DNA from: a candidate division FCPU426 bacterium
GTDB taxonomy: Bacteria > Oederibacteriota > JAAXVQ01 > JAUVAV01
NCBI GenBank assembly: GCA_030637655.1
Contig: DAOWGI010000027.1
Coordinates: 40,329-104,328, forward strand
DNA length: 64,000 nt
Reading direction: 5' to 3'
The position numbers were made by a program, and so were the translations under genes. The notes beneath the pieces are model-generated. The model did not search any database, was not told where the DNA came from, and saw only the letters and a list, made by a program, of their open reading frames with translations. Each line of letters opens with the position of its first letter. Position 1 is the first letter of the stretch. Shown here piece by piece: positions 38,684-54,718 of this stretch.

Positions 38684-40222
38684 CTATTTGAACAATTCGT
38701 CAGATTCCGGCACATGGTCGGTCTTTAACCGGGAGGTTTCCCAAGGATACACAGACAGCATTATACCTGTTACCAGGGTGGCAATCAGCCAGGTCACTCC
38801 AATACCTAACAGTGCGCTGACCGAATATCCTCCATAGCCTTTACTGAGTTCCGTATACAGGGAGCGGACCAACATGACCAGTAAAATGGCAGGAGTAAGA
38901 TACTTTATCATAAAATCCCATACCCAGGTCAATTTAACCCGGGCTGTCGCATTAATATGGTTGCGGAGCACCTTGGTTTTCAAAACATATCCCACCACTA
39001 AACACTCCAGCAAACCGGCCAGGACCAAACCATATTGATTCAGGAAATGATCTACAATATCCAGCCAAAACAGACCTCCACCGGTTGTGAAAATAAGGGA
39101 CCCAAATAAACCAATCATACACAAGGCTGTCACAATCCATTTCCGGGCAAGCTTAAATTTATCCATAATCGCACTGGTCAGCGCCTCAACAATCGAGACC
39201 CCGGAAGAAAGGCCGGCCACGGTCAGGGCAGAGAAAAAGAGCACACCAAAGACTTCACGCAAAAACGGGAGCTTGGATATGGCTTCCGGGAAAACCACAA
39301 ATGCCAGGGTAGGCCCGGATTTAATCACCTGATCAATTGGCAGACCTTTGGAATACGAGAGATATCCCAATATTGAAAAAACAGCAAACCCGGCCACAAA
39401 CGAGTACAAACAGTTGGTCAAGGCGACAATCCAGGCATTTTGCACCAAGTCTGTCTTTTTGGGCAGATAACTGGCGTACGCGATCATAATTCCAAAAGAA
39501 ATGGACAAAGTAAAGAAAATTTGACCATACGCTGCCATCCAGACTTTAAAATCGAGTAACTTTCCCCAATTGGGCTTTAAGTAATATTCAATTCCTTTGG
39601 CTGCTCCGGGCAGGGTTAAACCCCATACCACTAATATGATCGTAGTAACCAACAAAACAGGCATAAATATTTTGCACGCCCGTTCAATTCCCCGGTGTAC
39701 TTCCTGGTAAGTAATAAACCAGGTCACAAACCACATGAGTGCAGTGGCTGTCGCAATGATCCCTTGCAGACCACCCAGCTCACCCGGACCTTTGGTAATG
39801 CCTAAAAATTGGTTCAGAAAAAAGTCCTGCGTATCACTGCCCCAGGCCAGATTAAAGGAAAAAATCGTGAAGTTCGCGCACCAGCCAATAACCACTTGAT
39901 AATAAAACATAATGCCAAACATAACAAAAATGGGCATCCACCAGCCCAGCCATTCCATCCGCCGGCTCAGCTTGGCAAACGCCAAGGGCGCTGAGGCTTT
40001 TTCACGGTGACCCAGACCATATTCCAGCATCAGCAAAGGAATGCCTGCTGAAAAAAGCGCCACAAAATAAGGAATCAGAAACGCTCCGCCGCCATTATCA
40101 TAGGCCATATAAGAAAAACGCCAAATGTTTCCCAGCCCAATGGCTGAGCCAATGGCTGCCAGAAGAAATCCCCAATTTGACGAAAAAATACCGCGTTTGT
40201 GTTCAGTTGAGGAAGTGTTCAT
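38684..40222 (-). CDS. Sodium-dependent transporter of the NSS/SNF (SLC6) family
   Basis: N-terminal signature GLGNIWRFSYMAYDNGGGAFLIPY. 12 TM segments. Confidence 0.8.
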   Translation of the reverse strand: MNTSSTEHKRGIFSSNWGFLLAAIGSAIGLGNIWRFSYMAYDNGGGAFLIPYFVALFSAGIPLLMLEYGLGHREKASAPLAFAKLSRRMEWLGWWMPIFVMFGIMFYYQVVIGWCANFTIFSFNLAWGSDTQDFFLNQFLGITKGPGELGGLQGIIATATALMWFVTWFITYQEVHRGIERACKIFMPVLLVTTIILVVWGLTLPGAAKGIEYYLKPNWGKLLDFKVWMAAYGQIFFTLSISFGIMIAYASYLPKKTDLVQNAWIVALTNCLYSFVAGFAVFSILGYLSYSKGLPIDQVIKSGPTLAFVVFPEAISKLPFLREVFGVLFFSALTVAGLSSGVSIVEALTSAIMDKFKLARKWIVTALCMIGLFGSLIFTTGGGLFWLDIVDHFLNQYGLVLAGLLECLVVGYVLKTKVLRNHINATARVKLTWVWDFMIKYLTPAILLVMLVRSLYTELSKGYGGYSVSALLGIGVTWLIATLVTGIMLSVYPWETSRLKTDHVPESDELFK

Positions 40223-40344
40223 AAATCCCCTTTAAAAATAACAAAGCAGGCCGCGAAAACTTCTTCACAGCCTGCACTTAATGCTTAAGGTGAAATGATA
40301 CGCACTAACCTAAACCCTGTCAAATGGAAAAACGAGAATTTTGG

Positions 40345-40575
40345 AACATGTCAGTGATGGTACTGGGAGCCTTGTCGAATTTTACTCTTTCTCCCCCTTT
40401 TGTAAAGGGGGCAGGGGGGATTTAATCAATAAAACGCCCACTTTTATAATAAAATCCCCCTCAATCCCCCTTTTTAAAAAGGGGGAAGAGTGTTTAAAAT
40501 CCGCTTTTGTGCCTAAATCCAACAGGCTCCTAGCAAACCTGAAAAACCTTTCTAGTACCATCACTGATATGTTAC
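40345..40575. mobile_element. 231-bp MITE with 22-bp TIRs aacatgtcagtgatggtactgg / agtaccatcactgatatgttac and internal G/C-tract palindromes
   Basis: Near-perfect TIRs sharing the catgtcagtga core with families P and 3. Internal cccccttttgtaaagggggcaggggggatt and aatccccctttttaaaaagggggaag hairpins. ORF-track ORFs 40341-40595 lie wholly inside it and are judged spurious. Confidence 0.7.
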
Positions 40576-40707
40576 GGAATATTATAATCAGTTAGTTTCA
40601 GTTGCGGAAAGACTGTTTTTTAAAAAAGCCTTTTTAGCCGTCATCCCGGCTAAAATCATGCCAGGCGGTTTTCAAAATGGTATCCCCGGAATGAATTATA
40701 ATTATAA

Positions 40708-41436
40708 CTAATAACCCCACTCTTCATGCGCCAATGGTGTGCTGTTCAATATCTTTTTCTGCATTTCCCATTTGGGATAAAACTTGTCCATATATGCTTT
40801 GAATTTATCATTATGCAGGCGTTCGAGCAGATGAATCATTTCATGAACAAGAATATACTCAAGACATTCTATTGGTTTCTTGGCTATTTCAAGATTGATC
40901 CAGACACGTTTGTCTTTTATATTGCACGTTCCCCAGCGGGTGCGCATTCTTTTAACGCTCCAGTCATTTACTTTAACACCAATGACCTGCTCCCATTTGG
41001 TAATCAATTCGGGTAATTGCTTTTTCAGATGATCACGATACCATTCATAGAGCGCAAGCTCTCGATTCTTTCTTGTTGTTCCGGGGTTGACATACAAAAT
41101 CAATTTCGTATTATTCTTCATCACAACTTCATGCCTTCCATAACGTTCATTAACTTCGAGCAAATAACGTCTTCCCATGAAATAATGGCTTTCACCGGAT
41201 ACAAATTCCCTGGCTGATTGTCTGGGTTGGTCTATAAACTTCGACTGATGTCTTTTTATCCATCTCATTCTGGTAATAATAGCCAATCGGACGTTATCAT
41301 CATCCAGCTGATTAGGTACTGCAACTCGAATTCTGCCATTTGGCGGATACACAGCCAAATGAAGATTTTTAATTGGTTTACGTACCACTTCCACTTCAAG
41401 ATTGCTTACTGTAATGAAATGTTTGCTAGTACTCAT
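40708..41436 (-). CDS. YgjP-like (DUF45 / SprT-like) zinc metallohydrolase, a common type I RM accessory gene
   Basis: HExxH motif (VHEMIHLLERLH). Start taken at ATG 41436 (MSTSKHF) because the upstream ORF-track start is a TTG. Overlaps the hsdR stop. Confidence 0.65.
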   Translation of the reverse strand: MSTSKHFITVSNLEVEVVRKPIKNLHLAVYPPNGRIRVAVPNQLDDDNVRLAIITRMRWIKRHQSKFIDQPRQSAREFVSGESHYFMGRRYLLEVNERYGRHEVVMKNNTKLILYVNPGTTRKNRELALYEWYRDHLKKQLPELITKWEQVIGVKVNDWSVKRMRTRWGTCNIKDKRVWINLEIAKKPIECLEYILVHEMIHLLERLHNDKFKAYMDKFYPKWEMQKKILNSTPLAHEEWGY

Positions 41437-44400
41437 GCTGATTAACCACCAATTCAAATATTGCTTCTACCAGGCTATCTTCTGCACTATCCCCACCTAG
41501 TTCCTGACGAATAGCACTACGTACTTCCCGTTGTTTGAATCGATTAGACCTAAATCCTTCACGTACGGTATGGCGGACAACAGTATCAATCCGAATTGCC
41601 AATTCCTCATTTTTATCCAAGTTATCATAAAGTGCACGTTGGGCCGGAGTATTCATAGACGTCGGATAGCCTGATGTTTTCTCGGGTTTTTTTAACCGCT
41701 CAGCTAATTCCTTAATACGTTCCAGATATTCTTCGTATCGCAGTGCCTGTTCTTTCCTCTCTTTTATCAATGCTTCCAATAATTTTGACAAATTCTCATA
41801 ATACGCAGGATTGGTTGAGTACTCATCAATAATAACTTTTCGAAAATTATTTTCAATTGTATCAGCCATGGCTTCCTGATTATCACGAATAGACTTAGGC
41901 AGTTTGTTAAGACCATCAAGACCATTCTCAACAATTAGTTCTACCAGCCCCAGCTCTTCAAATTCTGATATTTTTTTACTTTCATCTGCCTGTACATACG
42001 TATCAAGCAGATGGCGCATGGCAGGTTCAAAACGTTTCATGTCAAGGTAATCACCACTAGCGATTTTTATTTCCTCACGAACTTTACTGTAATAAGTTAC
42101 TTCTTCTTTAATTGTCTTTATTTCCTCATCATTATATCCGGCATCTTTCATCTCATTTGCCAGATTGGCATACGCTCTTATAAATGATGCAACAAGTTTA
42201 TAAAGCACAACACGTTTTGATTCGTTTTTCTTCAAAGCATCTTTATCATCCTCAGGTAAAGAGCAAAAATAATGAATATAATCGGAAATATTTCTTGGCA
42301 TAGCCACAGGTTCACAAAGTGCTTTAACAGCTTCACGTACTTCATCCAATCGTTCTTTGCCTTTTTCCAATCGATCTGACAGAAGCCCTGCTACATCTTC
42401 TTTGTCATATCCGGCAAATGCATCCCCGGTATAATCATTGAGCGCACCACATAAGCTATTGAACAAATCTTTATAATCAATAATATAGCCATATTCTTTA
42501 TCTTCACCATCCAGGCGGTTAACACGACAGATGGCCTGAAATAGACCATGATCATGCATAGACTTATCAATATAAAGATAGGTTGCAGAAGGCGCATCAA
42601 AACCTGTCAATAATTTATCCACTACAATTAGAAGACGCATCTGGCCAGGTTCATCAACAAACCTTTTTTTCACCTCTTCTTCAAATTTTTCCACTTTGGA
42701 CATTGCTTTATCCGCTGATTCATCAAAATAATCTGCCAACATTTTGCGATAGATCTCATACTGTCTCAATTTTTCAGTCATACCTTCGCCTGATTCTTCC
42801 AGCTTAATATCCGCAGGTGATGGTTTGTAACTGGTGATGATGGCACATCTTCCTGCCAGATCGGTTTTGGTAAAAAGTTCAAAAACTTTGCAAGCCTGAT
42901 AAATGCTGGAGCATACAAGCATGGCATTACCTCCGCCATTCATTAAACGAGGTTTAAGTGCCATATCAAGCAGAATATCGGCAACGATCTTTTCAAGTCT
43001 ATTCTGACTTGAAAGAATTTTTTGCATGGTTCCCCATTTTTGTTTTAGCTGAAATTTGGCCACATCAGTAAGATTTCTGGTTTTGGCTTTAAACCATTGA
43101 TCTATTTTGTCTTTCGACGTTAGACTTTGGTCAATGTCTCTGGCCTCATAACACAAATCAAGAACAACTTTATCGTTTACCGCTTCGTCATATTTGTAAG
43201 TATGAATATAGGGACCAAAGGTTTCTATACTCATTTGCTTATCAGTTCTTAAAAGCGGTGTACCTGTAAAGCCTATACTCATACTATTAGGCAATATTTC
43301 TTTCATGGCTTTATGCAATATACCTGATTGGGTACGATGACATTCATCAATAAATACAAAAAGTTCACCCTTAGGCTTAAAATCTTTTTTTAGAAATTTA
43401 TTAAGCTCAGCAATATATTGCTCCATAGCTTGATCTTCTGTTCTGCCAAATTTGTGGATTAACGAACAAATAAGCCAGGGTTTGGTACTATTGAGATTAT
43501 CCATAAGATCGGAACCGCTCTTTGTTCTGTAAATTTCTTCATCAATTCCAAAGAAAACACCTTCGATCTGCTCATCCAATTCTGTTCGATCCGTAATGAT
43601 CAATACTCTGGTATTGGTAACATTTTCACGAATCCACTTGGCTAGCCAAACCATGATCAGACTCTTACCAGATCCTTGGGTATGCCAGATAATGCCGCCT
43701 TCGCGCTTTTTAACATGATCTTGTGCTGCTTTTACACCATAGTATTGATTGTGACGCGAGACCTTTTTTATGCCTTTATCAAAAACAATAAAATCATGAA
43801 TCAATTCCAAAAATCGCTTTTTATTACAAAGCTGGGTTAAATCACGATCAAGGAGATTGGCAATATCACTGGATGCTTTCCATTTGAGGTAATACTTTTC
43901 CTGTGTTTCGATCGTTCCATAGCGCAAGCCTTGGGTATCATTGCCGGCCATAACCAATTGCATGGTCGTAAAAAACGGCCTGATAAATTCTTTTTTTTGA
44001 TTATCCAGATTTTGACGGATGCCGTTTTCCAGGGTTACGCTGGAGCGTTTGAGCTCGAGAATGGCAAGGGCAATACCATTGACATACAGCACAATATCCG
44101 GCCTTTTGTTATACTTGCCAAGTACAGTTACTTCTTCCGCTATGGCAAAATCATTCTTTTCCGGTTCTTTCCAATTAATCAGCCATACTGTCTGATAGTT
44201 ATCACCTGCGCCTTCTCTGACCTTAACACCATAGCGCAGCTTACTATAGACTTCTTTGTTGGCATCATAGAGATTGCGGCCGTCACCAATAGCTGATGCT
44301 TTATCCAAATCATAGAGCGCTTTATTGATCAGTGTCTCATTAACACCCTGCTTAGCAAGCCAATGCTTTAATATCTCAGGTTCAATATTGCGGTTATCAG

Positions 44401-44495
44401 GCCTATCTTTCCAATCACCAAGATAGCGATAATTCAGTTGTTTGGTAAAAAGCTCAATTACCCGGTTTTGTGTGTGTCGTTCAGTTGCCAATGAT
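41426..44495 (-). CDS. hsdR: Type I restriction enzyme R subunit
   Basis: SF2 helicase motifs (TQGSGKS, DECHR, TGTP). C-terminal HsdR domain. Proposed start TTG 44495 (MATERHTQNR), 6 nt after a perfect AGGAGG and just after the Bro-N gene stop. The ORF-track GTG at 44563 would overlap the upstream gene by 62 nt. Confidence 0.85.
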
Positions 44496-44501
44496 GACCT
44501 C

Positions 44502-45344
44502 CTATTTATCGCCCAGCTTTTTTCTTTTATCTTGTTCAAGGTAATTCTGTTTTGATACCACACTTCTGCCTAATTCTTTTTCTGTTGCTTTGCGGGCATT
44601 GCCGGCAACTTTTCCGCCTCGTTTGGCGACTTTTTTATTTTTCTCAAAGGTAGTGGGTTTTTCTTTTTTTGAAATCTCGGTTGTAACGCGCTCGCCCAAC
44701 ATATTAAAGATCAATTCCAGATCATCCATGTGATCCCGTAAATTGGCTTTTGATTTTTCAGGAATATTTTTATGCTTCATATATCCAGTTGGTGTCATGC
44801 CAAAAGTTGCTTTTGAAATCTCGGCAGTTAAAATAGAAAACTCTTTTTGACCTTCAATTCCCCGCTCTTTCCACTCATCAGTCAGATTCTGACGAATGGC
44901 AATACCCCTAAGTCGTTTATCTATCCAATCCTTTGGGTATCCTTTTTGTTCGTATATTTCTTTCATCCGCTGTTGAGCCAACTCGGGATTTTCGATTTCA
45001 TCAAGCCTGTCCTGTCCAACCTGAGCCAACCAGCGTTTGAATGGTTCAGCTTTTTGGGAGGGAATTGACTGGATCAAGCGCAAAGCACTTTTGGTATTCA
45101 CACAGTCAGTTTGACGCATTTTCCCATCCTCGGCAGGTAATTTCAACTGTACCCAAATTGGGGACAGTTGAAGCTGAATAAACTCTCTTTCCTTCAATTT
45201 GCCCCAATATTGCCTTGGTGTAGGGCTTTCGGTTAGCGCTGAGATAATATCCACCACCGAATAGTACCACTCATCTTCATACCATAGCCTTCGAATTTCC
45301 TTACTTTGAAAAATCACAAGTTTGTCAGTATGTTCTTTTGACAT
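44502..45344 (-). CDS. Bro-N domain protein (DinD / antirepressor-like) embedded between hsdS and hsdR
   Basis: N-terminal Bro-N pattern (VIFQSKEIRRLWYEDEWYYSVVDIISAL). AGGAGG RBS. 280 aa. Confidence 0.55.
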   Translation of the reverse strand: MSKEHTDKLVIFQSKEIRRLWYEDEWYYSVVDIISALTESPTPRQYWGKLKEREFIQLQLSPIWVQLKLPAEDGKMRQTDCVNTKSALRLIQSIPSQKAEPFKRWLAQVGQDRLDEIENPELAQQRMKEIYEQKGYPKDWIDKRLRGIAIRQNLTDEWKERGIEGQKEFSILTAEISKATFGMTPTGYMKHKNIPEKSKANLRDHMDDLELIFNMLGERVTTEISKKEKPTTFEKNKKVAKRGGKVAGNARKATEKELGRSVVSKQNYLEQDKRKKLGDK

Positions 45345-45402
45345 CTTTACATATTCCTCCTCTATGTAGAATTTTTGGTTCTACACAGTTAGCCCGATAT
45401 TT

Positions 45403-46719
45403 TTAAATTTCCTTGCAATATTTATCAATTATCCTCGTTTTTCCGGTAAGTAATTCCTGCATCATGCCCTGCTTAATCGCCTTGGTCTTAGCACGCCGCG
45501 CTTCTAAAGCTGTTATATCAGCATCCATGTCTGAAAGAACGGAAGCAATGGCGGATTGTTCGCTTTCATTTCTTGGCAACGCAATTTTGAAAACAGACAA
45601 ATCTTTATTTGTAAGTTGATTTATTGTCGCACCCATGACTTCATTTATCTGTCGTTGAATAATATTTGATTGAAATTGATAAAAAATATATTGGCTATAT
45701 TTACTTCTATATAAAGACATAAATGCACCAAATGCACTCCCAACCACATGCTTATTAATTAGAGCGCATTTACCTATTAACTGGCGGCTTCCATTTCGCA
45801 CACAAATAAGAATGTCACCTTCTCTTACCATTACTCGATCCGGCAGATTCATCTCTACAAACACATTATCTTCAAATGCCAATTTACCATTTTGAACATT
45901 CGAAGAACGAAGAACAAGTACGCCATAATCTTTTACATCTCTCGGACTATACGTCAATCCTATTAAGCTGCAACCAACATCACCTAGCGGTACATTGTCC
46001 CAATCTTCTGGTATCTCTCCAACCTCTGTCTGTTTATATCCTTTTCCTTCACCAAACCCCGGCAGGCGTTTTTTGCCTGTCAGCAGTTGCTGCATGGTGG
46101 CAATTTTGATGGCGCGTTTTTTGGTGATGAGTTTATCGAGGGATGAAATCAGATCATCAATATCAGAAAGCGCAGTGGCGATTAAACGTTGTTCGGACGT
46201 TTCTTTTGGAAACCCGACCGGTAATTGATGCAGTATACTTCCTTTTATTCCTTTAGCCGTACTTCCTGAAGAATGATCACCTAATATTTGTTGAAATACA
46301 TCTGACATTAAATAGTACTTCAAATAATCATTACGAAGTAAATCCGCATTAGCTCTATATTTAATAACCCTCTGAGCTAATGCAACATTCTCTTTATCAA
46401 CTTCAGCAACATTACCTAATGGCGCTTCAGTTGTTATTAACACATCACCTTTTAAAGGATATCCACGTCTCATTATTGTTTGATACTCTTTTTCGGAAAC
46501 AAATTCCTCTGATATTGAATAATCAATAAATCCAAAACGAATATTTTTAGCGGTTACAAGTACGACGCCATCTTTTGTCTTTCTTGGCGTTTTACCTCTA
46601 TAATCAACATAATTTGTACATCGATTTATAGGAAGTGTCTCCCAACCCTCCGGAATCTCTCCAACCTCTGTCTGCTTATATCCTTTTTTCAATTGTCCAT
46701 TATCCATTGTCAATTCCAT
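45403..46719 (-). CDS. hsdS: Type I RM specificity subunit with two target-recognition domains
   Basis: Duplicated conserved segment KGYKQTEVGEIPE(G/D)W preceding each TRD. Conserved coiled-coil spacers. Start overlaps the hsdM stop. Confidence 0.8.
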   Translation of the reverse strand: MELTMDNGQLKKGYKQTEVGEIPEGWETLPINRCTNYVDYRGKTPRKTKDGVVLVTAKNIRFGFIDYSISEEFVSEKEYQTIMRRGYPLKGDVLITTEAPLGNVAEVDKENVALAQRVIKYRANADLLRNDYLKYYLMSDVFQQILGDHSSGSTAKGIKGSILHQLPVGFPKETSEQRLIATALSDIDDLISSLDKLITKKRAIKIATMQQLLTGKKRLPGFGEGKGYKQTEVGEIPEDWDNVPLGDVGCSLIGLTYSPRDVKDYGVLVLRSSNVQNGKLAFEDNVFVEMNLPDRVMVREGDILICVRNGSRQLIGKCALINKHVVGSAFGAFMSLYRSKYSQYIFYQFQSNIIQRQINEVMGATINQLTNKDLSVFKIALPRNESEQSAIASVLSDMDADITALEARRAKTKAIKQGMMQELLTGKTRIIDKYCKEI

Positions 46720-49154
46720 TGAAGTCCCATCTTCTTCAGATGCGCATCAACCTTAACACTTAATGTTTCCACTTTTTCCACCAATTGCGCTAGTGGTTCG
46801 GCATAGCGTTCTTCCAGCACTTTAATCCTTGTTGCCAATTGCTGGGTAATGCGTTCGATCTCGGACTCAATGGATTCTTTCATCGTAGCCAGCCATTTGT
46901 CTTCTATAATTAATGTTTTGATTTCATCTATTGTTACTTTTTGATATTTGGCCAACACTTTTTCACCAAGTACTTTCTGTGCTGTTTTTATTTTATTACT
47001 GGCTTCTGTTTCTTTTTCCATGAGTTCATGGCATTTGGTTAGGACAGCCATTTCTTCCTGATTGTCTTCCTGGTTTTTGACTTCTGCAATTGTTGTTTTT
47101 AGAGTAGCTTTAGTTATTTTGCCTTTATCATTCTTGGCATCTTCCAGAACGCTCTCTTCTCCGCTATGTTCTTCTATAAAAGATTCCAGTTCCTGGGTAA
47201 TCGTATCTTTATCTGATTGCAGTTCATCAAGTGCTTGCTGCTCTTTGCTAAAGAACCGATTAACAATAAGCTGCGGCGGAATAAGGTCCATTTTGAATTT
47301 CAGTTTATCAATAATCAGGTCCGGTGTTTCTTTTTGCTTTTCGCCGTTTTTCGGTTTTTCTAGTTTTCGCACTTGTTTGCCTGCTTGCCAGCCATCCTGG
47401 ACAATTATATAGACATCATCCTGCATGGTTTCCGACCAATAGTCCATGAGATGCTGATAAATATCATAGGGATTGATGAGTTTTGCTTTGAAAAACGTTG
47501 CGAGCAGATTTTCTGATAATTTATTAATAAGCTCTTTAGGCTTATCTTTTATTTTAATAGCTTCCAATTGTTCTTTATGCTCTTTTTCCCAGGCCTTGTA
47601 TAATTTCATAATCCCTTTGGAAAAGAATTGATACTCTTCATGCTTTAAAATATTTGCTTTAACCTGATTGGCCGGTACCAATGCTTTGATATACCCTGCT
47701 CTATTGCCTTTGGCAAACAGCTGATTACGCACATTTGGGAATAATTTCCAGTATTTATCCAATGCTTCAATATCTGCTTCCGGTATACCGCCTTTTAAAT
47801 GAGCTGGAAGATCATGCAAGTCTTCTGGCTCACTTGAATCAATGTAGCGGGGTATATTTAGATTGAATTCATTTTTTTCAATTTCCGCAAAAGGCACCAT
47901 GCGAGAATACCCGGCAACTTCTGATTGTTTGGTAAATATATCGACTATTTTATGTATATCCTGGCTACGCAGACGGTTTTTATTGCCATCCTTCATAAAG
48001 CCCTTGCTGGCATCAATCATAAAGATGCCCCGTCTGGCCTGGGCGTGTTGTTTGTCTATGACAATGATGCACGCCGGGATGCCGGTACCATAGAAGAGAT
48101 TGGCCGGCAGGCCTATGATGCCTTTGATATAGCCTTGCTTGATCAGATTGCGTCTGATGTCTGATTCAGTATTGCCCCGAAACAAGACTCCGTGGGGTAG
48201 AATGATCGCGCCTTTTCCGGTACTCTTCAATGATTTGATAATATGCAGCAGAAATGCATAGTCGCCGTTTTTAGCAGGCGGCACACCATACTCAAAGCGT
48301 TGGTACTGATCCTCTGTGGGTTTAATTCCTGTGCTCCAGGATTTATAGGAAAAAGGCGGATTGGCTACGGCAAAATCAAATTGTTTAAGGCTTTTACTAT
48401 CTGGATTTTTAAAGTGTGGACTTGATAACGTATTTCCTTTCCATATTTCGGCATATGGAGCATTATGCAAAAACATATTCATTCTTGCCAAGGCATAGGT
48501 GGCATTATCATTTTCCTGGCCATAGATGGAAAGTCCTCGCGGCGCTTGATCATTGGCTTTGAGTAGTAATGAGCCTGATCCGCACGTTGGATCATAGATT
48601 GTGCATTTTTGTGAAGTCGTTTCATCTATTCCAATTACTTCGGACATGACTATTGACACTTCAGCCGGTGTATAAAACTGTCCCTTACTCTTGCCCGATT
48701 CTGTGGCAAAGTGTCTCATTAGAAATTCATATGCATCTCCCAGTAAATCATCGTCACCTGCACGATTGGAGCCTAAATCAAGTCCTTCAAATATGGCGGC
48801 CAACTTGGTAAGTCTGTCTACCATTTCCTTACCTTTGCCAAGTTTATCCTCATCATTAAAATCAGCTATATCAATAACACCTTGCAGATCATTGTCTTTG
48901 GCAAGCCGGCCAATAATTTTATTAATCTTGTCGCCAATTTCTTTATCATTTTTGATTTTTATTATATCCGTAAAAGAACTGCCTGATTTAACAAGAATAG
49001 AATCATCGGCTTTACCGGTTGATTTGTCAGAGGCATATTTTACAAATAATAAGGTGAGTACATAATCTTTATACTGCGAGGCATCCATGCCGCCCCGTAA
49101 TTCATCACAGCTAGCCCATAGTGAGCTGTATAATTCGTTTTTTTTGATCGCCAT
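46710..49154 (-). CDS. hsdM: Type I RM N6-adenine DNA methyltransferase subunit (long form, about 300-aa C-terminal coiled-coil extension)
   Basis: HsdM N-terminal domain. Catalytic NPPF motif (VANPPFSYK). SAM-binding motif DPTCGSG. 814 aa. Confidence 0.85.
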   Translation of the reverse strand: MAIKKNELYSSLWASCDELRGGMDASQYKDYVLTLLFVKYASDKSTGKADDSILVKSGSSFTDIIKIKNDKEIGDKINKIIGRLAKDNDLQGVIDIADFNDEDKLGKGKEMVDRLTKLAAIFEGLDLGSNRAGDDDLLGDAYEFLMRHFATESGKSKGQFYTPAEVSIVMSEVIGIDETTSQKCTIYDPTCGSGSLLLKANDQAPRGLSIYGQENDNATYALARMNMFLHNAPYAEIWKGNTLSSPHFKNPDSKSLKQFDFAVANPPFSYKSWSTGIKPTEDQYQRFEYGVPPAKNGDYAFLLHIIKSLKSTGKGAIILPHGVLFRGNTESDIRRNLIKQGYIKGIIGLPANLFYGTGIPACIIVIDKQHAQARRGIFMIDASKGFMKDGNKNRLRSQDIHKIVDIFTKQSEVAGYSRMVPFAEIEKNEFNLNIPRYIDSSEPEDLHDLPAHLKGGIPEADIEALDKYWKLFPNVRNQLFAKGNRAGYIKALVPANQVKANILKHEEYQFFSKGIMKLYKAWEKEHKEQLEAIKIKDKPKELINKLSENLLATFFKAKLINPYDIYQHLMDYWSETMQDDVYIIVQDGWQAGKQVRKLEKPKNGEKQKETPDLIIDKLKFKMDLIPPQLIVNRFFSKEQQALDELQSDKDTITQELESFIEEHSGEESVLEDAKNDKGKITKATLKTTIAEVKNQEDNQEEMAVLTKCHELMEKETEASNKIKTAQKVLGEKVLAKYQKVTIDEIKTLIIEDKWLATMKESIESEIERITQQLATRIKVLEERYAEPLAQLVEKVETLSVKVDAHLKKMGLQWN

Positions 49155-49253
49155 TTTTTATGTAATTCCTTTATTTGATTTACTCCACGCTGTGCGGAGA
49201 ATATTTTGCGCAATGTTTTATTGTGGTCCTGTCAAAAAAAACCTCTGCTTTTT

Positions 49254-50798
49254 TCAATGCTTCTTGCTTTGCTTCTTTATGTACTCAGCGCCTTTTTTAG
49301 TAAGACGATATTTTTGCAAACGGCTGTTGGGCTTTTCGGGGATGGTTCGCTCTATCAGACTATTTTCCAAAGCAATGCTGAGGTATTGCTTCTCAAAATT
49401 ATCACGCCCCTTTAAATGCATCGCCTCCATTATCTCTTTGCGGCTCATTTCCTGATTTTTCAAGCATCTCAACAACTTTCCGACTTGCCCTGTGACTTGC
49501 CCTGTGACTTGCCCTGTGACTTGCCCTGTGACTTGCCCTGTGACTTGCGGGGCTATCCCACCAACAGCCTCAAAAGCGCGCCCGGATTTCCGGCGAATCG
49601 TTATCACAAATCCGTCTGTTAGCCGGAACTCCGGTTCCTTGAGTCCTGCTTCGCGGCAGCGTTCAACCATATCGCTGATGCCGGTTCCCATGCGCTCAAT
49701 ATACTTTGTCAGATATAAAGGCTCGGCAATCAACGGATTGACAGGCACTGATCCATGCGGCTGGCGCAGCTTTTCCAATGTGAGCGGGGGCGGAAGAGTA
49801 CCGGGATTCCACACTTCCAGCCGGTCGGAAAAAAGCATGACCTGCACACTGCCATTGCTGGTATAGTCGCGATGCGCCACGGCATTGACGATCGCTTCGG
49901 AAACCACTTCCGGGGGGATTTCATACGCCACCGGCGCCTGCGGTCCGCGAGCGCGCGTACCCACGGCTAAATCAATTTTTGAAAGAACAAAATTGACCGA
50001 CTGATTCACCAGATCAAACAATGTTCCCTTAAAGATTTGATAGAAAGGAATGGGTTTTGAAACGCTTGTGCCGTGAAAATGGGCGCATTTCACTTCAGAC
50101 GAAATTAGAAAACGCTGCGGATTTTTCCCGAATAGAAGCATGGCCGCGTTGGTCGGGAGATCGTTTTTAAGCAAATTCAAATGCGCCAGCACATCCCGCA
50201 TCTTGGTGTCGTCCGTCAAGGGTAATCCGCGCGAGTGACGGGCAAGTTGAAGAAACCAGCTGATTTTCTCTTCAGATAGGTCTTCCAGTTTCGCATCACG
50301 GCACAGCGCGGCGTCAAACGGCACGTCGCGAAGCAACTCATGCGCTGCCAAATAATCCACCAGCGCCGCGTAAACTCCTGCCATGAGCTCTGAAAATGTT
50401 GAAAATCTCCGGCGGATAAGCTGTGCGCCGGCGTGTTGCACGAGTGCGCGCATTTTCGGATGGCGTTGGCTGTCATCCAGACCTTTGACAAATATCAAAC
50501 GATATTTTCCGCGCCTGGTTGCTTCATCAAACTCCTGATGCGTGGCCGAAAAACCATTCGCATCTTCAGTCCCGTATTGATTCCCGAAAATGCCAATATA
50601 AACCTCACATTGCCCGATTTCGTTCATGTACAATGCCACCGCTGATTGATCCGCAGCAGCTTTGTCTTCAAACACAAACGGCTCAAAAAACCTCCGCAAC
50701 ATTGGATCAGCGCGCAAATACTCGCGCAGGGCTGCGCGCTCCGCTTCAAACTCTTTTTGAACACTGCTAATGAATATTTTAAATTTCATCCGCGTCAT
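49254..50798 (-). CDS. Fusion protein of N-terminal DUF4062 (TIR-like) with a COG2865-type module (Schlafen-like AlbA_2 DNA-binding domain, HATPase_c_4, C-terminal wHTH); candidate defense protein
   Basis: N-terminus KIFISSVQKEFEAER matches the DUF4062 / TIR-like FISS..E pattern. Central and C-terminal region resembles COG2865 regulators (..AHRDYTSNGSVQVMLFSDRLEVWNPG..). (QVTGQ)x5 linker, then wHTH. The likely true start is M4 (ATG 50789) behind AAGAGGG. Confidence 0.6.
   Translation of the reverse strand: MTRMKFKIFISSVQKEFEAERAALREYLRADPMLRRFFEPFVFEDKAAADQSAVALYMNEIGQCEVYIGIFGNQYGTEDANGFSATHQEFDEATRRGKYRLIFVKGLDDSQRHPKMRALVQHAGAQLIRRRFSTFSELMAGVYAALVDYLAAHELLRDVPFDAALCRDAKLEDLSEEKISWFLQLARHSRGLPLTDDTKMRDVLAHLNLLKNDLPTNAAMLLFGKNPQRFLISSEVKCAHFHGTSVSKPIPFYQIFKGTLFDLVNQSVNFVLSKIDLAVGTRARGPQAPVAYEIPPEVVSEAIVNAVAHRDYTSNGSVQVMLFSDRLEVWNPGTLPPPLTLEKLRQPHGSVPVNPLIAEPLYLTKYIERMGTGISDMVERCREAGLKEPEFRLTDGFVITIRRKSGRAFEAVGGIAPQVTGQVTGQVTGQVTGQVTGQVGKLLRCLKNQEMSRKEIMEAMHLKGRDNFEKQYLSIALENSLIERTIPEKPNSRLQKYRLTKKGAEYIKKQSKKH
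49484..49560. repeat. In-frame 15-bp tandem repeat (tgacttgccctg..), about 5.5 copies, encoding a (QVTGQ)n linker
   Basis: Directly visible perfect tandem array cctgtgacttgccctgtgacttgccctgtgacttg.. inside the DUF4062-COG2865 gene. Confidence 0.8.
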
Positions 50799-50919: not shown

Positions 50920-51120
50920 CTACCCTCGCCGCATTCGCAGATACGCCTCCACACTCCGGTCATAGGTTTTTTCGGTTTTGGCATCAAAATAACAAGCCGG
51001 CAGTTCGCCTAAGCGCCTGTGATATTGTACGCACTCGCAACATATACCTTTACGTGAACAAGGATAGGTGCAATTGCAGTAACTCATGTTTTTATCCTTT
51101 TTGCATTCCATCAAAATCAC
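50920..51120 (-). CDS. Small Cys-rich protein (66 aa, nine Cys including CNC, CxxxxxCC, CxxC patterns)
   Basis: ORF with a probable metal-binding cysteine arrangement. No confident family assignment. Confidence 0.35.

Positions 51121-54643: not shown

Positions 54644-54718
<75 letters not shown>

Follow-up and report, generated by a model that had tools for sequence, protein, structure and literature searches.

A gene in the window (the whole 64,000-nt stretch of DNA that was analysed) encodes a 514-aa protein that joins a DUF4062 (TIR-like) domain to a GHKL ATPase, a repeat linker and a C-terminal winged helix. Judged by sequence, DUF4062-GHKL proteins are a widespread variant, with a predicted function, of two anti-phage families described in 2026. 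We favour, at a probability of about 55%, the reading that the gene encodes an autonomous single-polypeptide abortive-infection enzyme directed against phages or mobile elements. The N-terminal DUF4062 domain would hydrolyse NAD+ via Glu89, the GHKL (Bergerat-fold) ATPase core would be an inheritance from the COG2865 'Schlatpase' lineage, and the winged helix would hang on a flexible QVTG-repeat tether. The NADase would be kept inactive in the absence of infection. The winged helix and the ATPase core would read an infection cue, ATP-bound GHKL domains may dimerise or tetramerise, by analogy with RzAgo, a Schlafen-Argonaute that has this Pfam domain, and this oligomerisation would turn on the NADase. 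No paper describing the DUF4062-GHKL-winged helix architecture was found, in agreement with the first-pass annotation, which knew of no characterised system with such a fusion; the 'NIR' DUF4062 preprint (10.64898/2026.09.04.749371) may list it.

The gene is an intact ATG-initiated open reading frame on the minus strand, as seen in the ORF list and its translation, and the product starts with MTRMKFKIFISSVQKEFEAER. An exact database look-up of the 514-aa protein, with both start codons, returned no match, and the sole database record of the window's protein was a 288-aa variant on a 1.25-kb scaffold. The domains were placed as follows.

49254..50798, minus strand: whole ORF of 514 aa, DUF4062 - GHKL ATPase - repeat linker - winged helix (ORF list, translation, Pfam, AF2)
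50343..50786, minus strand: DUF4062/TIR-like domain and the next helix, aa 5-152, putative NADase effector
50532-50534, minus strand: codon of the catalytic Glu candidate E89
49914..50327, minus strand: linker and N-terminal subdomain of the ATPase core, aa 158-295, homologous to the post-AlbA_2 region of COG2865
49590..49913, minus strand: GHKL (Bergerat-fold) ATPase, Pfam HATPase_c_4, aa 296-403
49482..49548, minus strand: perfect 12-nt tandem repeat, 5.6 copies, encoding (QVTG)5, aa 418-439 (TRF, 100% matches)
49284..49481, minus strand: C-terminal winged helix-turn-helix, Pfam Fic-like_C, aa 440-505, putative sensor or adaptor

The DUF4062 assignment made in the first-pass annotation was borne out by a Pfam PF13271 match at aa 7-93 that exceeded the curated threshold (74.6 bits, cutoff 24.7), and the domain has a TIR-like alpha/beta fold. 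E89 and F9 were invariant in 50 sequences. Their counterparts are E87 and F11 in Evangelion Eva01 (bioRxiv 10.64898/2026.06.25.731849), which keeps the DUF4062 core with its aromatic motif and catalytic Glu. The family profile matched residues 5-180 of Swarozyc KpSwz (bioRxiv 10.64898/2026.05.01.722283; PDB 10wc) with an E-value of 4e-6, aligning E89 with the catalytic E97, and matched TEP1, whose catalytic Glu is E1008, at 0.024. Mutation of E97 in KpSwz abolished both NADase activity and defence (bioRxiv 10.64898/2026.05.01.722283). NAD+ hydrolysis in vitro has been described for KpSwz and TEP1, and NAD+ depletion in cells has been reported for Eva01. NAD+ depletion is now the activity to be expected of a DUF4062 domain (bioRxiv 10.64898/2026.05.01.722283 and 10.64898/2026.06.25.731849); this literature backs the suggestion made earlier that the protein might deplete NAD+, which for the 514-aa protein itself is a prediction. 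The domain does not guarantee NADase activity or defence, since only one of four human DUF4062 proteins, TEP1, was active in vitro and Eva02 gave no protection (bioRxiv 10.64898/2026.06.25.731849).

It is improbable that the N-terminal domain is, instead of a NADase, a nucleotide/nucleoside N-glycosidase or deoxyribosyltransferase-like enzyme (MilB/BcmB/DNPH1 type) that depletes or modifies the nucleotide pool or makes a signalling nucleotide. BcmB and DNPH1 ranked high in Foldseek, and DUF4062 sequences fall between the TIR and NDT clans, but by sequence the domain groups inside DUF4062 and outside the NDT families. Moreover, NAD+ is the target of each of the three DUF4062 proteins whose activity has been reported (KpSwz, TEP1 and Eva01), and with TEP1 no cyclic or variant forms of ADPR were produced.

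KpSwz resembles the 514-aa protein in its N-terminal DUF4062 domain followed by a helix, its single-gene organisation, its auxiliary region at the C-terminus, part of which has a winged-helix fold, and its placement in defence islands. In contrast, KpSwz has 326 aa, lacks a GHKL ATPase and shows no detectable similarity to the 514-aa protein past about residue 175-180. It is activated through binding of the phage portal, and its Swz-type auxiliary domain is absent from the 514-aa protein, whose C-terminal two thirds consist of the GHKL ATPase and Fic-like_C. Eva01 likewise differs in having a short auxiliary region and no ATPase, and HATPase, Schlafen and Fic domains are unmentioned in the Evangelion paper (10.64898/2026.06.25.731849).

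The HATPase_c_4 domain and the C-terminal winged helix, both proposed in the first-pass annotation, were each matched by Pfam. The same annotation had also read a Schlafen-like AlbA_2 domain, and with it the full COG2865 architecture, into the protein, and this part did not hold. SLFN_AlbA_2 (PF04326) had no Pfam match in the 514-aa protein even at E<=1, whereas canonical COG2865 paralogues from related loci carry it at residues of about 3-131, before HATPase_c_4. BLASTP similarity to a canonical COG2865 paralogue began at residue 158 here and residue 127 there, past AlbA_2. Of the cluster representatives that have a DUF4062 domain and a length of 280 aa or more, the 75 closest included 47 with HATPase_c_4 and none with AlbA_2. 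Because homology to COG2865 begins only after AlbA_2, DUF4062 stands in place of the Schlafen domain and is no addition to it. On this sequence evidence, the protein is not a Schlafen protein, and the proposal that it targets nucleic acids via a Schlafen-like scaffold was dropped because the scaffold is absent.

What the protein keeps of COG2865 is the GHKL ATPase and the HTH. 'Schlatpases' (COG2865) consist of SLFN_AlbA_2 and a GHKL domain (PF13749), usually followed by a C-terminal HTH, as described with RzAgo (10.64898/2026.05.29.728809); a crystal structure is available (3lmm, DIP2311). The C-terminal HTH is found in >90% of Schlatpases (10.64898/2026.05.29.728809) and in the 514-aa protein, which also retains the E-x-x-x-N motif. 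The effector differs: it is the Schlafen nuclease in RzAgo and would be DUF4062 in the 514-aa protein, which has no counterpart of the RzAgo Argonaute sensor. We infer that the protein descends from a Schlatpase whose Schlafen nuclease effector was exchanged for a predicted NADase effector. Exchange of Schlatpases with type I restriction-modification (RM) loci was noted by the RzAgo authors (10.64898/2026.05.29.728809).

The match to HATPase_c_4 (PF13749) included the E-x-x-x-N motif, and a GHKL fold was confirmed on the isolated domain. The motif residues E301/N305 (N-box-like), N331-P-G333 and G371-T-G373 were all invariant, and the ATPase was the most conserved segment of the protein. Classical GHKL ATPases have an adenine-contacting Asp at the position held here by Asn331, so ATP binding by the 514-aa protein is not certain. 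E301/N305 would match RzAgo E314/N318, by motif position only. In RzAgo, these two residues coordinate the ATP gamma-phosphate and Mg2+, the protein tetramerises on ATP binding, and the E314A substitution weakens defence (bioRxiv 10.64898/2026.05.29.728809). In this one studied case, the GHKL ATPase is an ATP-dependent oligomerisation switch and not a DNA-binding scaffold (10.64898/2026.05.29.728809).

The AF2 model of the whole protein had a mean pLDDT of 83.8, which fell below 50 at aa 417-434. The (QVTG)5 repeat is accordingly modelled as a disordered tether that joins the ATPase core to the winged helix; the number of xV[T/A]x units in the tether ranged from 0 to 12 among homologues. The winged helix has a MarR-like fold. 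A homologous C-terminal tether ('DQVTDQV') and winged helix (E-values 1.8e-13 to 3.9e-15) occur in the Fic-family protein Dde_2494 (PDB 4rgl), from which Pfam Fic-like_C derives, whereas the Fic (AMPylase) domain of that protein is absent from the 514-aa protein. Some relatives are labelled 'Fic family protein' because their C-terminal domain alone matches; only the Fic-like_C winged helix was matched by Pfam, with no Fic/DOC catalytic domain, and this identity was rejected. A RecG helicase identity (a JGI label on relatives) was also rejected, as no helicase family was among the Pfam matches; the label arose because the Pfam title of PF13749 carries the name.

The gene lies 99 nt upstream of hsdM-hsdS-[Bro-N]-hsdR-[YgjP] on the same strand. 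Coordinates and PADLOC/Pfam assignments agree with its reported position at the 5' flank of a type I RM operon.

40708..49154, minus strand: neighbouring low-GC type I RM operon, whole (context; partnership with the DUF4062 gene putative)
46710-49154, minus strand: hsdM (PADLOC MTase_I, Pfam)
45403-46719, minus strand: hsdS (PADLOC Specificity_I, Pfam)
44502-45344, minus strand: Bro-N/PDC-S13 cargo gene (PADLOC PDC-S13, Pfam)
41426-44563, minus strand: hsdR (PADLOC REase_I, Pfam)
40708-41457, minus strand: YgjP-like metallopeptidase (Pfam)

GC content was 37-41% in the RM operon, about 48-50% in the DUF4062 gene and 46-48% in the left flank, a difference that points to separate histories for the gene and the operon. 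A promoter/terminator scan around the gene returned sites no more often than in shuffled sequences, and the stretch that separates the gene from hsdM had no promoter- or terminator-like site on its coding strand. Apart from an internal repeat of hsdS and the 12-nt array, repeats flanking the island were limited to short, chance-level matches. In PADLOC v2.0.0, no system-defining model and no PDC or HEC model matched the DUF4062 gene; partial matches at aa 156-384 came from Argonaute-associated models with the same ATPase core (E-values 1e-9 to 1e-13). For the downstream neighbours, the best 25 PADLOC matches were redundant RM models that added little beyond Pfam.

DUF4062-GHKL relatives with 48-65% identity were found in many bacterial and several archaeal lineages, a distribution that suggests horizontal spread. 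Related loci (n = 76) were compared using gene calls from a simple greedy-ORF procedure; these loci are phylogenetically non-independent, several being from Poribacteria. Same-strand type I RM genes were present in the flanks at 36 of the 76; they were directly adjacent at 27, and at 13 the gene lay inside the RM operon. The RM-associated copies involved at least three RM subfamilies and three positions (5' of the operon, between hsdM and hsdS, and between hsdS and hsdR). Same-strand type I RM genes were absent from the flanks examined at the remaining 40 loci, a subset of which was checked for other defence genes. Other relatives adjoin HmaA, DpdE or HKD and Snf2 genes, or sit between DUF1156_MTase and PLD_Helicase. 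The defence-island setting proposed in the first-pass annotation was thus recovered both here, at a type I RM operon, and among relatives, which recur in defence loci.

Full-length homologues of the 514-aa protein were also found on about 13 Legionella plasmids, where the gene lies beside par/rep genes (parB/rep) and no RM genes are annotated within about 9 kb of it. Evangelion is plasmid-borne as well, and the same number of Legionella plasmids, about 13, is positive for it (10.64898/2026.06.25.731849). Phage genomes yielded no full-length homologue, only matches to the ATPase core. On the favoured reading, the gene travels as cargo of type I RM loci and of other defence loci based on DNA modification, without needing them. 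It had been suggested that the protein acts with or alongside the RM system. Cooperation is not required, since the Legionella plasmids carry the gene without annotated RM genes. These plasmid copies, together with a GC content unlike that of the adjacent RM operon, argue for the autonomy of the enzyme.

These loci also bear on a different account, in which the protein is linked, physically or in function, with the type I RM complex; the xVTx-repeat tether and the winged helix of Fic-like_C may make the connection. If the RM enzyme were then inactivated or disturbed by an anti-restriction factor from a phage, the NADase would fire and provide a second line of defence. The anticodon nuclease PrrC is a precedent for an abortive effector whose gene lies within type I RM operons or next to them, and the frequency and variety of RM associations among the 76 loci fit such a guard; chance adjacency to type I RM would be well under 1% by our own informal estimate. 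The short gap to hsdM, free of terminator-like sites on the coding strand, also fits, as does the recurrence of the tether and winged-helix module in the Fic protein 4rgl and in a smaller DUF4062 protein encoded within an archaeal RM operon. However, PrrC has unrelated domains and is almost exclusively RM-embedded, whereas roughly half of the DUF4062-GHKL loci are RM-linked. For about half of the relatives, no RM gene was seen in the flanks examined, the Legionella plasmid copies have none annotated nearby, and GC content gives the gene and the window's RM operon different histories. Because relatives also occur in Hma, Dpd and DUF1156-methylase loci, generic cargo of defence loci fits better than a specific partnership, and we regard the RM-coupled guard as unlikely. 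Equally doubtful is a broader form, in which the tether and Fic-like_C constitute a portable adaptor that docks DUF4062 NADases, Fic proteins and Schlatpases on the complexes of type I RM and other DNA-modification systems, or on the DNA that these act on. ATP-dependent assembly of the GHKL domains would then turn phage anti-restriction or stalled restriction into NAD+ depletion.

The position of the gene 5' of the RM operon, its place beside parB/rep on Legionella plasmids and the MarR-like fold of the winged helix could also indicate an ordinary regulator, for instance one that controls the RM operon, or a plasmid or island maintenance factor. In that case the winged helix would be a DNA-binding part, and the domains that resemble enzymes would serve regulation or be vestiges; relatives are indeed labelled 'predicted HTH transcriptional regulator' in source databases. 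We consider this very improbable. Vestigial domains would not be expected to keep the putative catalytic Glu and every residue of the GHKL motifs invariant, or to include the best-conserved segment, the ATPase, as is seen here. The variable position of the gene relative to the RM genes makes a poor fit to an operon controller, and the winged-helix-fold auxiliary domain of KpSwz binds a phage portal protein, not DNA.

If the autonomous abortive-infection reading is true, the GHKL 'Schlatpase' chassis would be a general ATP-dependent activator with exchangeable suicide effectors, a Schlafen tRNase in one protein and a TIR-like NADase in another, and two defence families first described in 2026 would be linked. 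The 514-aa protein is predicted to be a natural system for the gating of a TIR-like NADase by nucleotide-driven oligomerisation, a mode otherwise known from NACHT/STAND proteins. Should the portable-adaptor guard hold instead, the PrrC type of 'restriction failure sensing' would be a general and modular principle. The family is a strong 'guilt-by-embedding' defence candidate outside the coverage of PADLOC v2.0.0, because its members are spread over many lineages of bacteria and archaea, are carried by Legionella plasmids and are frequent cargo of type I RM operons.

The gene under study is a 514-codon reading frame with an ATG start on the minus strand of the window, identified from the ORF list and by translation. 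A type I restriction–modification (RM) operon, characterized with Pfam and PADLOC, lies 99 nt downstream on the same strand, which bore out the first-pass annotation's placement of the gene upstream of such an operon. The features of the locus were as follows:

54644–54718: tRNA-Met, the nearest tRNA (~4 kb off)
50920–51120, minus strand: small Cys-rich ORF (~63–66 aa), between a YjbQ gene and the DUF4062 gene
49254–50798, minus strand: DUF4062 gene (514 aa)
46710–49154, minus strand: hsdM (814 aa)
45403–46719, minus strand: hsdS
44502–45344, minus strand: Bro-N protein gene, between hsdS and hsdR, matching PADLOC candidate PDC-S13 at 8e-112 (PDCs are "guilt-by-embedding" candidates; Payne et al. 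2024)
41426–44563, minus strand: hsdR (1045 aa)
40708–41457, minus strand: YgjP-like metallopeptidase gene

GC content was ~48–50% in the DUF4062 gene, 37–41% in the RM operon (window 40000–49200), and 46–48% and 40–44% in the flanks. The difference between the gene and the operon argues for separate acquisition and suggests that the island is a mosaic put together by separate acquisitions.

The DUF4062 N-terminus, HATPase_c_4 domain and C-terminal winged helix described earlier were all matched in Pfam.

Pfam domains of the 514-aa protein, all well above the curated thresholds
DUF4062, aa 7–93, 74.6 bits
HATPase_c_4, aa 317–398, 76.5 bits
Fic-like_C, aa 438–500, 86.8 bits

The AF2 model had a mean pLDDT of 83.8, with low confidence confined to residues 417–434. 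An exact look-up of the full-length protein found no identical entry in the protein collection. A 1,251-bp scaffold (ZHAN22-2_SAMN18200491_METAG-scaffold_387700) encodes a 288-aa variant identical to residues 4–261, followed by a diverging tail not encoded in the window; this may represent a strain variant with a disrupted gene or else a short contig that is chimeric.

Sequence, fold and catalytic residue all place the N-terminal domain in the DUF4062 superfamily. DUF4062 was described in 2026 as a TIR-like NADase in phage defence in the Swarozyc (10.64898/2026.05.01.722283) and Evangelion (10.64898/2026.06.25.731849) systems. A profile of 50 family members matched both the Swarozyc protein KpSwz (PDB 10wc; E 4e-6) and human TEP1 (E 0.024). 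E89, within SATHQEFDEA, aligned to the residue changed to Ala in the deposited KpSwz E97A mutant, and both E89 and F9 (E87 and F11 of the Evangelion protein Eva01) were invariant across the 50 sequences. In KpSwz, E97 is needed for NADase activity and defence, and autoinhibition of the protein is lifted only when its auxiliary domain binds a phage portal (bioRxiv 10.64898/2026.05.01.722283). The fold scores do not separate an NADase from a different, N-glycosidase chemistry, but NAD+ is favoured both by placement in DUF4062 and by the activities reported for DUF4062 proteins, making an N-glycosidase quite unlikely.

The central part is a GHKL/Bergerat ATPase core (PF13749), the best conserved segment of the protein (mean column identity 0.87), with no variation in the family at E301, N305, N331-P-G333 or G371-T-G373. 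A 2026 preprint characterized the GHKL portion of COG2865 in the Schlafen–Argonaute protein RzAgo; its authors named the AlbA_2 and GHKL pair the "Schlatpase" supradomain (10.64898/2026.05.29.728809). In RzAgo, the same Pfam domain binds and hydrolyzes ATP, with E314 and N318 coordinating the gamma-phosphate and Mg2+; ATP binding leads to tetramerization and activates the fused Schlafen nuclease, and E314A impairs phage defence (10.64898/2026.05.29.728809). More than 90% of Schlatpases have a C-terminal HTH, and the same authors note exchange of the module with type I RM loci (10.64898/2026.05.29.728809). PADLOC v2.0.0 had no model for the 514-aa protein, and its weak matches to Argonaute-associated models (aa 156–384) may reflect the common ATPase core.

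The first-pass annotation had described a complete COG2865 module including a Schlafen/AlbA_2 domain, which did not hold: SLFN_AlbA_2 had no Pfam match in the protein even at E ≤ 1, and COG2865 homology starts only at residue 158. Canonical COG2865 paralogues adjoin family members in two loci of other genomes (L044 and L040), with SLFN_AlbA_2 at 3–131 and HATPase_c_4 at ~280–400. In BLASTP, residues 158–396 aligned with residues 127–356 of the L044 paralogue (32% identity, E 2e-33), beginning directly past its AlbA_2 domain. DUF4062 thus holds the Schlafen position of COG2865 proteins, indicating domain replacement rather than addition. In L044 (9992–14357, a Latescibacterota MAG), the DUF4062–GHKL gene is directly followed by two canonical Schlatpase genes (AlbA_2 and HATPase_c_4), so that the chassis occurs there with an NADase-type and with a Schlafen-type effector in neighbouring genes.

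Ahead of the winged helix, a perfect 12-nt tandem repeat of 5.6 copies (49482–49548, minus-strand coding) encodes (QVTG)5, which is predicted to be disordered. Homologues carry 0–12 tetrapeptide units of the form xV[T/A]x, and in-frame slippage may tune the length of the tether. The winged helix has a MarR-like fold and is homologous to the C-terminus of the Fic protein 4rgl (E 1.8e-13), where a similar kind of linker precedes it. Its conservation was the lowest among the folded parts (mean column identity 0.59), which fits a recognition role.

The domain identities, conserved residues and genomic associations are direct observations; as to enzymatic activities, trigger and outcome, we infer, with a probability of roughly 55%, an autonomous abortive-infection enzyme. 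Sensing would fall to the tethered winged helix, the ATPase core or both, and ATP binding would drive GHKL oligomerization and thereby gate the TIR-like NADase effector. TIR-like NADases as a rule require oligomerization for activity. By analogy with RzAgo, a GHKL switch tetramerizing on ATP binding could plausibly bring the DUF4062 domains together. The invariance of the two putative active sites speaks against a mere regulator or a maintenance factor, a role that we regard as very unlikely.

The architecture is widely distributed. The best 120 protein clusters all had the three domains, at 58–67% identity, and at least 80 loci were found among one genome per species, most matches running from the first residues to approximately residue 500. 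These 80 loci span many bacterial and several archaeal lineages, including the cultured Legionella shakespearei and Methanoculleus formosensis. A search with the DUF4062 domain alone yielded 104 representatives of protein clusters (E ≤ 1e-30); HATPase_c_4 was present in 47, Fic-like_C in 25 and AlbA_2 in none of the best 75 representatives of at least 280 aa, so DUF4062 plus GHKL forms a stable, sizeable clade. No full-length copy was found in phage genomes. One type I RM operon (L002:9302–12004, a Methanosarcinales MAG) contains two tandem DUF4062 genes between hsdM and hsdS: the first encodes a 342-aa DUF4062 and Fic-like_C protein without the ATPase, its DUF4062 53% identical to that of the window, and the second a full 505-aa DUF4062–GHKL–Fic-like_C protein.

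To describe genomic neighbourhoods, ORFs of the 80 loci were called by a simple procedure and searched with iterated profiles based on the RM proteins of the window. In 36 of 76 phylogenetically non-independent loci, the examined flanks contained type I RM genes on the same strand; they were directly adjacent in 27 of the 76 and on both sides in 13. For a random gene, we would expect adjacency to type I RM in well under 1% of cases, which is our own estimate and not a computed background. A Pfam scan of immediate neighbours agreed independently, with HsdR-type domains in up to 10 (ResIII 10, HSDR_N 9), HsdS in seven and HsdM in four of 68 downstream neighbours, and HsdS and HsdM in seven each upstream. 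Gene positions varied (hsdM-hsdS-[gene]-hsdR-ygjP, hsdM-[gene]-hsdS and [gene]-hsdR), as did RM subfamilies, some hsdM being 53–61% identical to that of the window and others only about 23–34%. Within the window's RM subfamily, the gene mostly lies between hsdS and hsdR (L003, L011, L052, L057), a slot filled in the window by the Bro-N gene instead. Some other family members adjoin different defence genes, of DNA-modification or helicase type.

Loci in which the family member has no type I RM gene as immediate neighbour
L069: between DUF1156_MTase and PLD_Helicase
L061: after HmaA
L027: after DpdE
L013, L016: after HKD+Snf2 proteins

Full-length copies (55–58% identity) were also present on 13 Legionella plasmids, such as NZ_CP021275.1 (35955–37526, L081) and NC_006365.1. 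On the two plasmids examined, the gene directly follows parB, close to rep, and the annotation lists no RM gene up to ~9 kb away. On ~130-kb pLPP-type plasmids, the match is split into two pieces with separate protein annotations, a pattern suggestive of a frameshift. Embedding in RM operons would suit a guard coupled to the RM complex, like the anticodon nuclease PrrC, but some copies have no RM genes close by and others lie in defence loci of other kinds, which makes this unlikely.

The literature search found no paper combining DUF4062 and HATPase, in line with the first-pass annotation, which was aware of no characterized system with this exact fusion; a third DUF4062 preprint from 2026, which reportedly renames the domain NIR, was outside its scope. 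HATPase, Schlafen and Fic domains are not mentioned in the Swarozyc and Evangelion preprints, and the Legionella copies were probably picked up in the Evangelion survey of plasmids through DUF4062 similarity. The protein shares its DUF4062 part with Swarozyc but is not Swarozyc proper, because its auxiliary region differs. It shares the GHKL core with Schlatpases but, having no Schlafen domain, is not a Schlatpase/COG2865 protein. The most fitting description is an effector-swapped Schlatpase or, just as well, a DUF4062 defence protein whose auxiliary module is a GHKL ATPase. The two parent modules and the idea of cargo genes in RM operons are already in the literature; the family itself is widespread and mechanistically suggestive.
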